A DNA stretch of 64,000 nucleotides from a virus (IMGVR_UViG_3300020431_000005:49898-113897); one strand, 5' to 3'; counted from the stretch's first letter, positions 37,103-41,329 are shown. Numbers and translations: made by a program. Notes: a model not told the origin generated them from the letters alone.

Positions 37103-37299
37103 TGCTTAGTCTCTGGATCCACTTGGTAGCATTCTTTCAAGTTGTGGTAGTGAATTGTATTCATCCTGCCAACTGGCAGTATTGCTATCGAGTAGACCAG
37201 TGGCTCTTGCCAGAAGTCAAGGAAGGGTATAAACTATGGACAGGACAGACAACCCCCTATCAAAGTGAACAAAATTATCTCGACCTCCCCTCTAAATAG
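37102..37299 (+). CDS. Hypothetical protein
   Basis: 65 aa with hydrophobic N-terminus. Confidence 0.55.
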   Translation: MLSLWIHLVAFFQVVVVNCIHPANWQYCYRVDQWLLPEVKEGYKLWTGQTTPYQSEQNYLDLPSK

Positions 37300-37312
37300 T
37301 TAGACGGGAGGT
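37283..37312 (+). promoter_or_regulatory. Hairpin containing a late-like promoter (CTAAATA) and sequestering the GGAGG SD of the next gene
   Basis: ACCTCCC-c-TCTAA-ATAG-TTAGA-c-GGGAGGT; GGAGG (37307-11) is 7 nt before ATG 37319; followed by a short T-run. Confidence 0.7.
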
Positions 37313-37318
37313 TTTCTT

Positions 37319-38464
37319 ATGGCATTTAATAGCATACCTAAAAACTCCTCTGAAATGAGAGCTCTTGCTGGGAGTAGTATTGAAAAGAAATACAGAGGAC
37401 CAATTATTCATTTTTACAACCATATTAAAAAGCACTATGGTATAGAAGATGCGTTGGCATTTAATCCTAAAACTAACGCAGGTAAGAGTTGTAAAATTAT
37501 GCGTGGTTTGAAAGGAACAGTTGATGTAACAAAGGTTAAGAGACAGGTAGGATTGGATACTAATTTTAAAATTACTTGGGGTGATGGTAGTAGAGGTAAT
37601 CGTGGCACAGGTAATAGAGGTAATTTATTTGAGGGGCAACTTGAGAACGGATTGAATGATTGGATTGAGACTGGAGAATACTCTGACAATCCATATAAAA
37701 ATCTTATTGCTGATCTAATAAAATACTATGACCTTGAAGATTGTCAGATTGTAGGGGTTCAAGAAGAAGGTAGTCAAAATAAAGGAAGACCACTGAAATA
37801 TGAAAATGGAAATTGGAAAGTTGGTGATGCTGATGGATCTCATTATGATATTGGATCCACCGTTACAGACCTTACACTGACAACAAAGAAAGGATCTAAA
37901 AAAAGTGTTATCTATCTTTCTCTTAAAACTAGTGGCACTACTACCATGTCTAACTTGGGAGTAAAGAAAATATTTACCAAGGATGAAATACAGAAAGGTG
38001 TTATTGAAACTGATGTAGGATTAAAAGTTTTAGAAACTTTTGGTATTAATAACGATAGATTTTGTAGAATTTTTAATGAAGCAGCAATGGGTAGAGTTAG
38101 AAGTGGTGGAAATGATCCTAATCCACAATTTAATAGAACTTTGTTACAGGGTATGATTCGTGGATCTATTGGATATGGATATCACTATACACATAAACAA
38201 GGAAATAAAATTAAAAACTTTCCTATGACAAAGCAGTTGTGTGATCGTGCTACTAGTATCACTTCTGTAACTGTCCACTATGGAGGTAAGACTGGGACAG
38301 GACAGCGTGTTGATATCACGGTCAACACACCCATCATGGAACTTAAGTTTAATATTCGTGACACTAGCGGCAGTGCGGACCCATGGCCTGATAAACTACA
38401 GTCAGCATACAAGTTTGATGGTGAAGCTGTGTTCAGTGTTCCTGAGGATGGATACGTAGACTAA
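37319..38464 (+). CDS. Hypothetical, possible PD-(D/E)xK-type endonuclease
   Basis: GNLFE ... TVTDLTL ... IYLSLK pattern resembles a restriction-like catalytic core (inference). Confidence 0.45.
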   Translation: MAFNSIPKNSSEMRALAGSSIEKKYRGPIIHFYNHIKKHYGIEDALAFNPKTNAGKSCKIMRGLKGTVDVTKVKRQVGLDTNFKITWGDGSRGNRGTGNRGNLFEGQLENGLNDWIETGEYSDNPYKNLIADLIKYYDLEDCQIVGVQEEGSQNKGRPLKYENGNWKVGDADGSHYDIGSTVTDLTLTTKKGSKKSVIYLSLKTSGTTTMSNLGVKKIFTKDEIQKGVIETDVGLKVLETFGINNDRFCRIFNEAAMGRVRSGGNDPNPQFNRTLLQGMIRGSIGYGYHYTHKQGNKIKNFPMTKQLCDRATSITSVTVHYGGKTGTGQRVDITVNTPIMELKFNIRDTSGSADPWPDKLQSAYKFDGEAVFSVPEDGYVD

Positions 38465-39666
38465 TGGCAAACATTAAACAGCTCAAGCACCTAGAGCACT
38501 TGGAAGATGAGATGCTGAACTACGGCGTCGATGGGTGTAAGGCAGCAGTATCATTTCTTAAAGAACTCCGCAAGATGTTGGGTCAGCAAGAGAGTGGTGG
38601 TTTTATGCAGACTAAGTGGGACGGTGCTCCTTCTGTTATCTGTGGTATGGATCCTCTCGCTGATATCTTTTTTGTGGGAACTAAGTCTGTATTTAATAAA
38701 GACACTCCTAAAATTTGTTATTCGGAAGAAGATGTTGACTCCATGTATAGTGGAGACCTCGCAGAAAAACTTAAGTTTTCATACAGGTATTTTAGTAAAC
38801 TTGGTATCAAGGGAGTTATCCAAGGAGATCTTCTTTACACTTCTGATATTAGAAAAGAAACTGTAGATGGAGAATTACTATACACTTTTAGACCTAACAC
38901 TATTACCTATGGTATTCCTGTAGATCATCCTATTGGTAAAGCAGCAGGTAAATCCAAGATTGGTGTAGTATTTCATACTCATTATCAGGGAACTGACTTG
39001 CCTACTATGCAAGCACTGGCAGGAGCTCCTGTCGATACTTATAATGATATTCCTGAAGTTTTACTTGTCAAAAATGATACTCCTATGGATAGGGTTGGGT
39101 TCTCTAGAGCAGAGATGTCTAAATTCAATAACTATATTTCAAAAATTGAACGTATGTGTGGCATCTGTGGTGATTTTTTAGATGAATTAGTTGCTAAGAC
39201 AGGTACTACTGGTGATTCTAAGTTCCACATCGCATCTTATCTAAAGCAGTTCTTTAATAATGAGATTAAGAATGCTCGTAGTATTGTCAGAATTGATGAG
39301 ACGATGTATGACATGCTTAACTTCTATGAAGAGAAAACAAATAAAGAACTTGCCAAAATTAAAACAGTTGCGAACCTGACTAAGAAGAGATCTCTTGTAT
39401 ATGATAGTCAGAACTACGTAGTAGATAATGTATACAAGTTTAAAGCAATGCTTACTCTGTATAAAGAACTCCAAGCAGTCAAGCAAATGGTTATAGATAA
39501 ACTGGACCACCTGGAAGAGTTTAGAACATTCGTTCAAACTGACAAGGGATATAAGGTTACAACTCCCGAAGGGTATGTCTTACATAAAGACGGTGATATG
39601 ATTAAGTTTGTCAACCGTATGGAGTTTGCTTACAATAACTTCACCCTACAGAAGCAATGGCGTTAA
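38464..39666 (+). CDS. Conserved cyanophage protein (DUF6267-like) with ligase-type nucleotidyltransferase motifs
   Basis: K51-W-D-G, IQGD122LLY, E369GYVL and MIK381FV in the order of ligase/capping-enzyme motifs I, III, IV, V. Confidence 0.6.
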   Translation: MANIKQLKHLEHLEDEMLNYGVDGCKAAVSFLKELRKMLGQQESGGFMQTKWDGAPSVICGMDPLADIFFVGTKSVFNKDTPKICYSEEDVDSMYSGDLAEKLKFSYRYFSKLGIKGVIQGDLLYTSDIRKETVDGELLYTFRPNTITYGIPVDHPIGKAAGKSKIGVVFHTHYQGTDLPTMQALAGAPVDTYNDIPEVLLVKNDTPMDRVGFSRAEMSKFNNYISKIERMCGICGDFLDELVAKTGTTGDSKFHIASYLKQFFNNEIKNARSIVRIDETMYDMLNFYEEKTNKELAKIKTVANLTKKRSLVYDSQNYVVDNVYKFKAMLTLYKELQAVKQMVIDKLDHLEEFRTFVQTDKGYKVTTPEGYVLHKDGDMIKFVNRMEFAYNNFTLQKQWR

Positions 39667-40220
39667 ATTGTAATACTTGCTACTTTACATTTGGTAGGTT
39701 TCAACCACCTACTACAGGACACAAAGATAACTTTGATGGGGTGAAACGTATCGCAGGTAGTCATGACTATCGGATCTATATTTCTCAAACATTTGATACT
39801 AAAGGTAAGAACCCCTTACCACCTGATCGTAAATTGTATTACATGAACTTGATGTTTCCAGAACATCGTGGTAAGATAATATCTGGACCCAAAGATCCTG
39901 TTGCTATTATGCAAGACTTAATGTTGGCAGGATATAATGAAGTTGTATTTTTAGTTGGATCTGATCGTGTTAGTGCGATGCAGTTCTTACACAGATACAA
40001 TGGCAAAGACTTCTCGTTCAGAAAGATCGAGATACAATCTTCTGGTAGCAGAGATGCTGATGGAGATACCTTTGCTATTTCTGGAACGAAGATGAGACGT
40101 GCGGCATTTGCTGACGACTTTAAAACATTTCGTTCTGGTATTCCCAGAGCATTGAATGATAAACAGTGCCAGAAAATGATGGAAGAGATACAATCAAATC
40201 TACCTGCGAATTTTAAATGA
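39657..40220 (+). CDS. HxGH-superfamily nucleotidyltransferase (cytidyltransferase-like)
   Basis: FGRFQPPTTGH, KNPL, VGSDR, ISGTKMR. Confidence 0.85.
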   Translation: MALNCNTCYFTFGRFQPPTTGHKDNFDGVKRIAGSHDYRIYISQTFDTKGKNPLPPDRKLYYMNLMFPEHRGKIISGPKDPVAIMQDLMLAGYNEVVFLVGSDRVSAMQFLHRYNGKDFSFRKIEIQSSGSRDADGDTFAISGTKMRRAAFADDFKTFRSGIPRALNDKQCQKMMEEIQSNLPANFK

Positions 40221-40474
40221 AAGATTTCAAGAAACTACGAGAAGAAGCACTGCGGCAACAACAGAGGCAGGAAGAAATATTCAAAGAAGGTGATGCTGTT
40301 ATGTCATCACGTACAGGAGAGAAAGGACATCTCCATAGAGTAGGTGGAAACTATGCTATAGTAATTTCTGAAGAAGGTAATATGTTTAGAGAGTGGATTA
40401 GGAATATTAGATCTATAAATAATACGAGAAGAACCTCCTTGTTAAACGATGAAGTATCAGAAGACAGTCAATAG
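40217..40474 (+). CDS. Hypothetical (SH3/KOW-like), CTS-like N-terminus
   Basis: MKDFKKLREE start; IFKEGDAV...G....G.NY. Confidence 0.6.
   Translation: MKDFKKLREEALRQQQRQEEIFKEGDAVMSSRTGEKGHLHRVGGNYAIVISEEGNMFREWIRNIRSINNTRRTSLLNDEVSEDSQ
40414..40421 (+). promoter_or_regulatory. Late promoter
   Basis: Exact TATAAATA before ORF 40449. Confidence 0.7.
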
Positions 40475-41003
40475 CGTTAACAACAATGACGAGTTTTCGT
40501 CTGGGTTGATGGAAGCATACGGTAAATGGATGGGTGGAGATACCTTCCAGAATACTACCATCAGCGAAGCAGCATTTGATGGTATGCCACAGCAGTCCAA
40601 TGGTGCTGAAATTGAAGACACTACAATAAAAGCAAAGAAAGCAAAGAAAACGGTCAAGAAAGAAGAAGTAGAAGTTCTTGAGCGTGAAGAGTATGAGATC
40701 GATGGCGAGATTTATGTCATCGAGAAAGTAAAGATGGATGGCGTTGATGACAACGGCAACACCTCATGCTGGAAAGGATATAAGAAGCAAGGCACCAAGA
40801 AGAAAGGTGGTAAAGAAGTTAACAACTGTGTAAAAGCAGGCGTTGAGTATGAAGGTAATGAGCTTACAGAAAAGAAACTTGACCCCGTTGGTAAAGCAGA
40901 TGCTGACATCGACAATGACGGTGATGTAGATAAGTCTGACAAGTATCTCCACATGCGTCGTAAGAAGGTCTCCAAGATCATTGGTATGTCAAAGAAAAAA
41001 TGA
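40449..41003 (+). CDS. Modular hypothetical, probable internal head protein
   Basis: CWKGYKKQGTKKKGGKEVNNCVK module and a DxDxDG-type loop DIDNDGDVDKSD. Confidence 0.65.
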   Translation: MKYQKTVNSVNNNDEFSSGLMEAYGKWMGGDTFQNTTISEAAFDGMPQQSNGAEIEDTTIKAKKAKKTVKKEEVEVLEREEYEIDGEIYVIEKVKMDGVDDNGNTSCWKGYKKQGTKKKGGKEVNNCVKAGVEYEGNELTEKKLDPVGKADADIDNDGDVDKSDKYLHMRRKKVSKIIGMSKKK

Positions 41004-41329
41004 AAACATTTAGACAACTCCGCGAAGAGTGCGATTGTAAAGATAAGGAACGTAAAGGTAAGAAGAAAAAATCTACCATAGAAATCATGCCTGTTGTCAA
41101 CGATGGCAAGAAAGGCATGGTTACTAAACCTACTAATGAATCAGTATTTGCTGGTAATTATCAGGGACCATTGTATGCTCCTCATCCTGACCTTGTTAAA
41201 AAAGTTAAGAAAGAATCATTTGAAGGTGGCGTAGCAAAAGCAAGAAAAGACTACCGTTCTGGAACACTTTTAAATTTTAAACAGTTCATGTCAAAATTGA
41301 CAGACATTTTAGACGAGTGGGAGAAATAA
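41000..41329 (+). CDS. Hypothetical with CTS-like N-terminus
   Basis: MKTFRQLREE start. Confidence 0.6.
   Translation: MKTFRQLREECDCKDKERKGKKKKSTIEIMPVVNDGKKGMVTKPTNESVFAGNYQGPLYAPHPDLVKKVKKESFEGGVAKARKDYRSGTLLNFKQFMSKLTDILDEWEK

Follow-up and report, generated by a model that had tools for sequence, protein, structure and literature searches.

Predicted ligase-type nucleotidyltransferases of the DUF6267 family and their HIGH-superfamily partners in marine T4-like phages

What is the function of a widespread family of hypothetical proteins encoded in the replication block of marine T4-like phages, and what does it share with the second putative nucleotidyltransferase encoded directly after it? 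This question is raised by three overlapping open reading frames (ORFs), here termed ORF-A, ORF-B and ORF-C, in a window of 64,000 nucleotides (nt) (IMGVR_UViG_3300020431_000005:49898-113897; all positions refer to this whole stretch), which derives from a 114-kb, 59% complete fragment of an uncultured T4-like cyanomyovirus (Kyanoviridae). The middle protein, ORF-B, belongs to Pfam family DUF6267 (E 1.3e-123) and to phrog_455 of PHROGs, a family of unknown function; it is annotated solely as hypothetical, and no mention of DUF6267 was found in a literature search. An earlier reading of the window, made from the sequence alone (hereafter the sequence-only reading), had taken ORF-B for a divergent nucleotidyltransferase of the ligase type in which a long helical insertion separates motifs IIIa and IV. 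This proposal is now supported by the predicted fold, the invariant residues and the topology of the protein, and ORF-B is very likely a lysine-adenylyltransferase of the ligase type, judging from its modelled fold and catalytic motif set. On balance, we lean towards a wider proposal, in which DUF6267 would be a catalytically intact, hitherto unrecognised lysine-nucleotidyltransferase family that forms a fixed pair with ORF-C and belongs to a heal-and-seal or counter-defence kit acting late in infection or after injection.

Invariant motifs and predicted fold of ORF-B

A search of 1.84 billion cluster representatives returned 2,318 matches to DUF6267 at E <= 1e-3 (representatives at 50% identity), and at 90% identity the family forms no fewer than 7,521 clusters. 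All eight complete genomes of marine T4-like cyanophages and pelagimyophages that were examined contain a member, as do 468 phage records. Among 88 full-length relatives, aligned at about 33% identity to the query, the residues H12, K51, D53, G54, P56, G61, F70, K74, D122, Y149, H171, K340, E369, G370, K381 and F388 are invariant. In a second alignment, 150 listed representatives of 50%-identity clusters were realigned to the family hidden Markov model, giving 157 segments; no substitution is seen in these at K51, D53, G54, K74, D122, Y149, H171, E369, G370 or K381, gaps arising from fragments only, and motif I (K51-W-D53-G54) is unsubstituted in at least 145 aligned segments. The four residues named as catalytic in the sequence-only reading (K51, D122, E369 and K381) are thus conserved across homologues, every one of them being under absolute constraint. 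The six motifs it had quoted (QTK51WDG, FFVGTKS, VIQGD122LLY, VVFHT, PE369GYVL and MIK381FV) are all found in the translation in the order claimed, far exceeding what chance alone would produce. They can be assigned to the ligase series as motifs I (K51xDG), III (D122), IIIa (F142), IV (E369-G370, within EGYVL, which we take to resemble the motif IV of T4 Rnl2) and V (K381).

A short form of DUF6267, of about 295-300 amino acids (aa), was observed in P-SSM3 (L083), P-SSM2 (L085) and many S-RIM and ACG-2014 phages. As it still covers query residues 8-399, the helical insert is much reduced there.

An AlphaFold2 model of ORF-B built on the 88-sequence alignment reached a predicted local distance difference test (pLDDT) of 94.7 and a predicted template modelling score of 0.91. 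From the N-terminus, the model comprises a helix (residues 13-39), a core rich in beta strands (about 45-205), a set of five long helices (215-350) and four strands (354-382) that rejoin the core and bear E369-G370 and K381, the five helices forming a domain of about 135 residues inserted between motifs IIIa and IV. The motifs sit on predicted strands (D122 in 118-125, F142 in 137-142 and K381 in 378-382), with E369-G370 leading into the strand at 370-375. Only residues 385-394 follow motif V, and an OB domain is not present in the model.

The model was then scanned in an unbiased manner against 48,161 representative PDB chains, with 50 matches listed. The top eight non-helical matches are all RNA ligases (Z 6.7-8.3, 163-191 residues aligned): Naegleria NgrRnl (5cot; Z 8.3 over 184 residues, root-mean-square deviation 3.9), T. 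brucei REL1 (1xdn; Z 8.1), fungal Trl1 ligase domains (Z 7.6, 7.5 and 6.7), two entries of T4 Rnl2 (2hvq and 1s68; Z 7.3) and T4 Rnl1 (Z 6.7). Archaeal Rnl3 and DNA ligases follow at Z 5.3-6.3 (DNA ligases 5.3-6.1), and the other rows cover the helical insert alone. Each ligase alignment spans the model from about residue 5 to about residue 390 and the entire nucleotidyltransferase domain of the target (3-234 in T4 Rnl2); because these alignments are sequential, they very probably bracket all five motifs. Searching a library of viral predicted structures, the first matches beyond the DUF6267 family were likewise annotated RNA ligases. The fold assignment, resting as it does on a model, can be regarded as strong: the case for a ligase fold is carried by the motif positions and by the fact that all top non-helical matches are ligases, and the predicted fold appears closest to nick-sealing and tRNA-type RNA ligases. 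Within the ligase/capping superfamily proposed previously, the nearest folds are those of RNA ligases and not of mRNA capping enzymes; none of the latter occurs in the 50 listed matches, an absence from a list that does not exclude the family, and the OB domain of capping enzymes is missing from the model.

Comparison with individual ligases reveals both common and distinctive features. With NgrRnl (Rnl5), REL1 and T4 Rnl2, the similarity extends over 177-191 residues (Z 7.3-8.3) and takes in the entire nucleotidyltransferase domain, and the motif order is shared (KxDG, an acidic motif III, EG(Y/F)V and the motif V lysine). ORF-B differs from these enzymes in that PF09414 (Rnl2) is not among the three families reported for it at E <= 1, in that about 135 helical residues lie inside the core instead of in an appended domain, and in its motif III Asp, its single motif V Lys and its HIGH-type partner. 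T4 Rnl1 and Trl1 (9do4, 6n0t and 9r3w; Z 6.7-7.6) form the sole family with any sequence signal. The corresponding Pfam model, RNA_lig_T4_1 (PF09511), is matched by 2 of the 88 DUF6267 members, with a best E of 6e-4 that lies under the family threshold, and is not matched by the window's ORF-B. When hhalign was run against a 36-sequence T4 Rnl1 profile, a local match over motifs IV-V only was obtained (E 0.016), pairing E369-G370 with E227-G228 and K381 with K240 (pEGFVa..g.aVKL / iEGYVa..G..FKL), residues that we take to be motifs IV and V of Rnl1. Against single sequences, hhalign returned a probability of 0.1 for T4 Rnl2 and a short motif IV-V match only for T4 Rnl1, and with the N-terminal core alone K51/D53/G54 were paired with K99/D101/G102 of Rnl1 without significance (E 0.34). 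Rnl1 and Trl1 differ from the present system in that no CPDase or phosphatase domain is seen here and in having a different helical module. The superfamily fold and motifs are also shared with ATP-dependent DNA ligases (T4 gp30, Chlorella virus ligase 2q2t, and archaeal and eukaryotic enzymes), from which ORF-B differs in its lower scores, in the absence of an OB domain or a DNA-binding domain of known type, and in giving no match to PF01068.

Several points weigh against this assignment and the wider proposal built on it. A Z of about 8 is moderate, falling in the 'middling' range of the tool. No ligase model in Pfam is matched by ORF-B, and family-level hhalign against ligases gave probabilities of at most 3%, with no significant sequence link. 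The motif III residue is Asp, not Glu, motif V is reduced to a single Lys, and the placement of K51, D122, E369 and K381 in one nucleotide pocket is inferred from the alignment of the model. A Foldseek search of PDB found no match at E <= 1e-3 and several ligases among the weak rows, probably because the long insert hampers matching. The structural and profile comparisons suggested earlier thus yielded a confident ligase-like model, but neither Foldseek nor hhalign gave a significant result. A sequence-to-structure search, with ORF-B alone and with the profile of its 88 relatives, returned coiled-coil noise only.

With Z scores of this order, no Foldseek match and no significant profile link, it could be argued that DUF6267 shares with ligases nothing more than a beta-sheet arrangement and chance motifs, and that it is a structural or scaffolding virion protein without nucleotidyltransferase activity. 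This is very improbable in our view: five ordered motif positions that coincide with catalytic sites of ligases do not vary across about 150 diverged clusters, the eight best-scoring non-helical chains are ligases without exception, and the protein went undetected in virions of S-SZBM1 and, presumably, of S-CREM2 (see below).

The HIGH-superfamily partner and companion enzymes

The partner, ORF-C, contains the sequences GRFQPPTTGH and ISGTKMRR, and G13, R14, P17, G21, H22, S142 and R147 are invariant in 48 relatives, in line with the (T/H)xGH and ISxTxxR motifs pointed out by the sequence-only reading. The signatures GRFxP...GH and ISxTxxR are common to NadM/NadR-type NMN adenylyltransferases (NMNATs) and PPAT, and the Thr that replaces the first His of the motif presumably occurs in PPAT as well. 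ORF-C matches phrog_3041 ('cytidyltransferase') at 3.6e-71; its score for PF01467 (CTP_transf_like), 14.5 bits, is below the cut-off of 21, and relatives exceed it with up to 35.1 bits. A profile of the 48 relatives matched M. jannaschii NMNAT (1f9a) at 0.004 and NadR (1lw7) at 0.006, with a further NadR match at 0.016 and weaker ones to PPAT, all PDB matches being confined to the N-terminal third (the HxGH region). For TIGR01526, the NadR/NadM equivalog, ORF-C scored 14.4 bits against a cut-off of 341. By these criteria ORF-C is a HIGH-superfamily nucleotidyltransferase nearest to the NMNAT clade, and not demonstrably an NMNAT proper.

The association between the two enzymes was surveyed in 80 related viral contigs, all T4-like and, where upstream sequence is available, mostly with g41 upstream. 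The partner lies directly downstream of DUF6267 in 67 of the 80 loci; most of the remaining 13, as judged by eye from coordinates and without a tally, seem to end too soon downstream. The linkage extends to fusions in both orders, DUF6267 preceding the HIGH enzyme in P0132, P0204, P0206, P0251 and S-PM2 (a 591-aa protein in the last) and following it in P0135, P0157 and P0217. The proposed survey of neighbourhoods and fusions has thus borne out the coupling. The pair is also found in Pelagibacter phage HTVC008M, Methylophilales phage Melnitz and Stenotrophomonas phage DLP6. In P-SSM2, no gene for a HIGH enzyme is annotated beside the short DUF6267. Complex prediction for ORF-B with ORF-C was uninformative (score 0.01 against a mark of 0.32), and PADLOC gave no match for ORF-A, ORF-B or ORF-C. 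To our knowledge, there is no described precedent for a lysine nucleotidyltransferase obligately coupled to a HIGH nucleotidyltransferase.

In relatives, further enzymes join the pair. A P-loop kinase of the zeta-toxin/AAA_33 type forms a fusion with DUF6267 in P0205 and with the HIGH enzyme in L046, and is encoded separately elsewhere (HTVC008M gp129 and others); its profile matches zeta toxin (6e-5), seryl-tRNA(Sec) kinase (4e-4), adenylate kinases and one further PDB entry at 0.026, presumably the kinase domain of Clostridium Pnkp. The P0205 fusion recalls the ligase-kinase layout of Trl1 and the repair pair of T4 Pnk and Rnl1. Adenylate kinase (Pfam ADK, up to 3e-40) is encoded beside DUF6267 on pelagimyophage-like contigs (L048:4464-5045, L063:6471-7031 and L077:1244-1828), and Pol-beta nucleotidyltransferase domains and DUF5824 are fused to the HIGH enzyme. 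Single-sequence PDB searches with the kinase and the Pol-beta domains were uninformative. One metagenomic polypeptide of 1325 aa (P0256) joins DUF6267 and the HIGH enzyme to an ATP-grasp domain of the RimK type and a putative ATP-dependent Zn protease domain. A ligase-fold enzyme accompanied by a kinase and a terminal-transferase-type enzyme resembles known RNA heal-and-seal systems, and an adenylate kinase together with an NMNAT-like enzyme would equally suit the handling of adenylate or NAD.

The latter possibility leads to a different reading, in which ORF-B adenylylates a protein or small molecule, or caps RNA, and acts with its partner and the kinases in a nucleotide-cofactor or signal pathway that rebuilds or diverts NAD+ and adenylate pools, for instance against NAD-depleting defences. 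Such a pathway derives its weight from the NMNAT-like nature of the partner, which the authors of a virion proteome also name an NMNAT homologue (PMC10665884), and from the adenylate kinase and further nucleotide kinases that join the module; the fusion with RimK ATP-grasp and Zn protease domains would fit as well. It has to be set against the close structural neighbours of ORF-B, which are all polynucleotide ligases and, in the top 50 matches, include no capping enzyme, and against the invariance of the full ligase motif set, motifs IV and V included; moreover, the loci examined revealed neither Nampt nor any other recognised enzyme of NAD salvage. We consider the pathway unlikely.

Late timing, ligase content and capsid-targeting leaders

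An RNA hairpin (-18.2 kcal/mol, z -3.84) separates the mazG block from ORF-A. Its loop contains a late-promoter-like CTAAATA (37292-37298), 21 nt before the ATG of ORF-A, its 3' arm forms the Shine-Dalgarno sequence GGGAGG of this gene (37306-37311), and a U-tract follows. The layout of hairpin, late box and Shine-Dalgarno sequence is kept in 7 related loci in which the arm sequences have changed. The late promoter postulated by the sequence-only reading is upheld by the retention of the box at this site in the 7 relatives but not by word frequency, since CTAAATA is not enriched in the window (10 seen versus 13.4 expected), nor are late-promoter words window-wide. The T4 genes e and soc have the same arrangement, in which read-through transcripts hide the ribosome-binding site and a late start within the hairpin exposes it. 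By analogy, the hairpin looks like a T4-style switch that permits translation from late transcripts only, and it could also terminate upstream transcripts. Independent experimental support for late timing comes from the transcriptome of P-HM2, in which g41, mazG and PHM2_160 are classed as 'Mid', and PHM2_162 (DUF6267), PHM2_163 (the HIGH enzyme), 164 and 165 as 'Late', in light and dark alike (PMC5082946, supplement file 3).

Does DUF6267 compensate for a ligase that these phages lack? The record is too incomplete for the absence of a ligase from it to say much, and complete relatives were therefore searched instead. A six-frame Pfam search of S-RSM4, P-SSM3, P-HM2 and P-SSM2 revealed no ATP- or NAD-dependent DNA ligase and no RNA ligase, PF09414 included; T4 served as positive control, with gp30, Rnl2 and Rnl1 all scoring. 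The search of S-SZBM1, HTVC008M and Melnitz, which was confined to the two DNA-ligase families, found neither. Stenotrophomonas phage DLP6 carries DUF6267 and a canonical ATP-dependent DNA ligase together.

It could accordingly be proposed that DUF6267 is the 'missing' DNA ligase of cyano- and pelagimyoviruses, replacing gp30 in the sealing of nicks in phage DNA (Okazaki, recombination or packaging-blocking nicks), with the partner supplying NAD+ or serving as an accessory. The gene lies in the replication block of phages without gp30, between g43/uvsX/g41/mazG and g61/nrdA, and this position, together with the lack of any other ligase in seven complete marine T4-like genomes, is what sustains a nick-sealing role on DNA. 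Homologues of g30 have not been found in cyanomyoviruses, distant and undetected ones being left open by the authors (PMC2984593), and DNA ligases are among the structural matches of ORF-B. Still, RNA ligases score above DNA ligases in that comparison and an OB domain is missing, and capsid-targeting-like leaders are present on many homologues. The P-HM2 gene is expressed late and its adjoining replisome genes in the middle period, and DUF6267 coexists with a canonical ligase in DLP6; on account of these last two observations, an Okazaki-type ligase is ranked below the proposal of a late or delivered kit and is, in our estimation, rather unlikely.

Leaders resembling those of T4 internal proteins offer a further indication of function. 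T4 IPII and IPIII start with MKTYQEFIAE and IPI with MKTFKEFTST; the majority of distant DUF6267 homologues bear very similar leaders just before the conserved HLEHLED (for instance MKTFKHFVTES, MKSFKQFIKEQ and MIKFKKFLVEG). DUF6267 homologues, kinases and fusions of the HIGH enzyme carry leaders, MKTFKQFIKE and MKSFKQFLKE among them, that match those of T4 closely. Their (L/I)xE end we take to be the cleavage site of the T4 prohead protease. In the 80 loci, a strict MKxFxxFLxE-type pattern was found on 7 DUF6267 genes, 5 HIGH-enzyme fusions and 11 other plus-strand ORFs, the last including adenylate kinases and zeta-like kinases of the module, and on none of 1238 minus-strand ORFs. Two of the three adenylate kinases (L063 and L077) fit the leader pattern; an adenylate kinase packaged in the virion, if that is the case, would be unusual. 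By analogy with T4, such leaders on ligase-like, kinase and nucleotidyltransferase genes may point to an injected enzyme kit.

Virion proteomes bear on this point. The partner, described as a 'cytidylyltransferase', and proteins encoded just downstream of it were detected in virions of S-CREM2 (PMC10665884) and S-SZBM1 (PMC9146016). The authors of the S-CREM2 study warn of possible contamination in their proteome (PMC10665884); the packaging of the partner, and of homologues that carry a leader, is consequently plausible, that of ORF-B unproven. To the counterpoints listed earlier for ORF-B must be added that the window's protein starts with MANIKQLKHLEHLED, with no capsid-targeting leader, that the S-SZBM1 homologue (SSZBM1_141, 40% identity to ORF-B) is not among the detected virion proteins listed (PMC9146016), and that S-CREM2 ORF153, which precedes the cytidylyltransferase and occupies the presumed position of DUF6267, is not in the virion list (PMC10665884). 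ORF-C of the window is also without such a leader. A last counterpoint concerns the partnership: we know of no ligase that needs a HIGH-type partner, so the role proposed below for ORF-C is conjecture.

Taken together, late expression and the T4-type leaders of many relatives underlie the proposal of a late-acting or delivered repair or counter-defence kit, and these features, along with the best structural matches and the accompanying kinase and Pol-beta domains, favour a kit that acts on RNA or nucleic-acid ends, RNA being the somewhat more likely substrate of ORF-B. Mechanistically, attack by K51 on the alpha-phosphate of either ATP or an NAD-like dinucleotide would yield an enzyme-AMP intermediate, with D122, E369 and K381 acting as motifs III, IV and V. 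The AMP would then be moved to a 5'-phosphate end, after which attack by the 3'-OH would seal the break. The inserted helical domain may bind the nucleic acid, a task for which other ligases have separate C-terminal domains or OB folds, and ORF-C might make or regenerate the adenylyl donor, or otherwise handle nucleotide by-products. In relatives, the pair would grow into a nucleotide- and end-processing kit through the addition of adenylate kinase, a zeta/PSTK/PNK-like kinase and a Pol-beta nucleotidyltransferase, and this kit would act late, or enter with the DNA at the next infection, as a heal-and-seal or counter-defence system.

A more specific version, which we regard as distinctly doubtful, envisages a hitherto undescribed two-enzyme ligation system in which a ligase descended from RNA ligases would obtain its adenylyl donor, NAD+ or a related dinucleotide, from on-site synthesis by the NMNAT-like enzyme; carried into the capsid by T4-like targeting leaders, along with the adenylate and polynucleotide-type kinases, and then injected, the system would mend breaks that the host has inflicted on tRNA, mRNA or phage DNA as soon as infection begins.

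Neighbouring genes and significance for marine phages

The isolates closest to the locus are Synechococcus phages Sf-CH1b and S-RSM4, with 80-83% nucleotide identity over it. On the plus strand, the window carries uvsX, g41, mazG, a 65-aa ORF and ORF-A to ORF-E in this order, which S-RSM4 matches, g61 and nrdA coming next in that phage. The arrangement of ORF-A, ORF-B and ORF-C as three overlapping plus-strand genes was confirmed (Table 1): ORF-A and ORF-B overlap by 1 nt (TAATG, at 38464), ORF-B and ORF-C by 10 nt (39657-39666), and ORF-C and ORF-D by 4 nt (ATGA, 40217-40220).

Table 1. Coordinates and assignments of features around ORF-B in the window
Feature	Coordinates	Strand	Description
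RNA hairpin, then U-tract	37282..37313	+	conserved; late box in loop, ORF-A Shine-Dalgarno sequence in 3' arm
ORF-A	37319..38464	+	381 aa; HinP1I/MspI-like PD-(D/E)xK restriction endonuclease fold (predicted)
ORF-B	38464..39666	+	400 aa; Pfam DUF6267; putative ligase-type (lysine) nucleotidyltransferase
ORF-C	39657..40220	+	187 aa; HIGH-superfamily nucleotidyltransferase, NadM/NadR-like
ORF-D	40217..40474	+	85 aa; N-terminus MKDFKKLREE; phrog_4808
ORF-E	40449..41003	+	184 aa; Pfam DUF7201
109-aa ORF	41000..41329	+	N-terminus MKTFRQLREE, like T4 capsid-targeting sequence

For ORF-A, the earlier suggestion of a nuclease agrees with its model (pLDDT 84.6), in which a restriction-endonuclease-like region (about 90-370) follows an N-terminal domain of about 90 aa. 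HinP1I (Z 8.2, 191 residues aligned) and MspI (Z 8.2, 197 residues aligned) are the best structural matches, the next scoring 4.5, and Foldseek retrieves them at 8.5e-4 and 1.2e-3; the fold is shared with these enzymes, and the N-terminal domain is an addition of ORF-A. E105, D184, S201 and K203 are invariant in 34 ORF-A sequences, and the arrangement D184-x16-S201-x-K203 with E105 presumably corresponds to the D...(Q/N)xK variant of HinP1I and MspI. The family is narrow, being restricted to cyanophages (236 clusters), and occurs in 12 of the 80 loci; other genes without a Pfam family hold its position in P-SSM3, P-HM2, S-SZBM1, HTVC008M, Melnitz and DLP6, and a direct comparison of SSZBM1_142 with ORF-A revealed no similarity. 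The modelled nuclease fold thus appears real, the gene being accessory rather than a conserved member of the module. The conserved three-gene module assumed by the sequence-only reading does not hold: as the nuclease is found in only a subset of relatives, with unrelated genes in its place elsewhere, the conserved core consists of two genes, ORF-B and ORF-C.

Downstream of the pair lies ORF-D, which many relatives have joined to the C-terminal end of their HIGH enzyme, fusions of ORF-C with ORF-D occurring in at least 19 loci; ORF-D also matches phrog_395 at positions 208-276. Its public name in S-RSM4 and ACG-2014 phages is 'ribonucleotide reductase alpha subunit'; no Pfam ribonucleotide reductase match was obtained at E <= 1, and the name looks like a propagated misannotation as far as the sequence can tell. 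A canonical TATAAATA lies upstream of ORF-E at 40414-40421. ORF-E contains a CWKGYK..GTKKKGGKEVNNC motif and an Asp-rich DADIDNDGDVD stretch, and is 61% identical to SSZBM1_139 over a 38-residue CWKGYK segment only; SSZBM1_139 was detected in S-SZBM1 virions (PMC9146016). Within the module region, only ORF-D and the ORF at 41000 have N-termini resembling the T4 leader. A 141-aa ORF far from the module (691-1116) starts with MRDYKDLKELCE, which is also capsid-targeting-like.

The absence of a recognisable ligase from cyanomyoviruses has been flagged since 2010 (PMC2984593), and the presence of a ligase-fold enzyme, as predicted here, in their replication block makes the question directly testable. 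Phages that carry DUF6267 are among the most abundant viruses of the ocean, and the family, very large yet annotated as hypothetical, may supply them with a ligase-type lysine nucleotidyltransferase that works with a fixed HIGH-superfamily partner.

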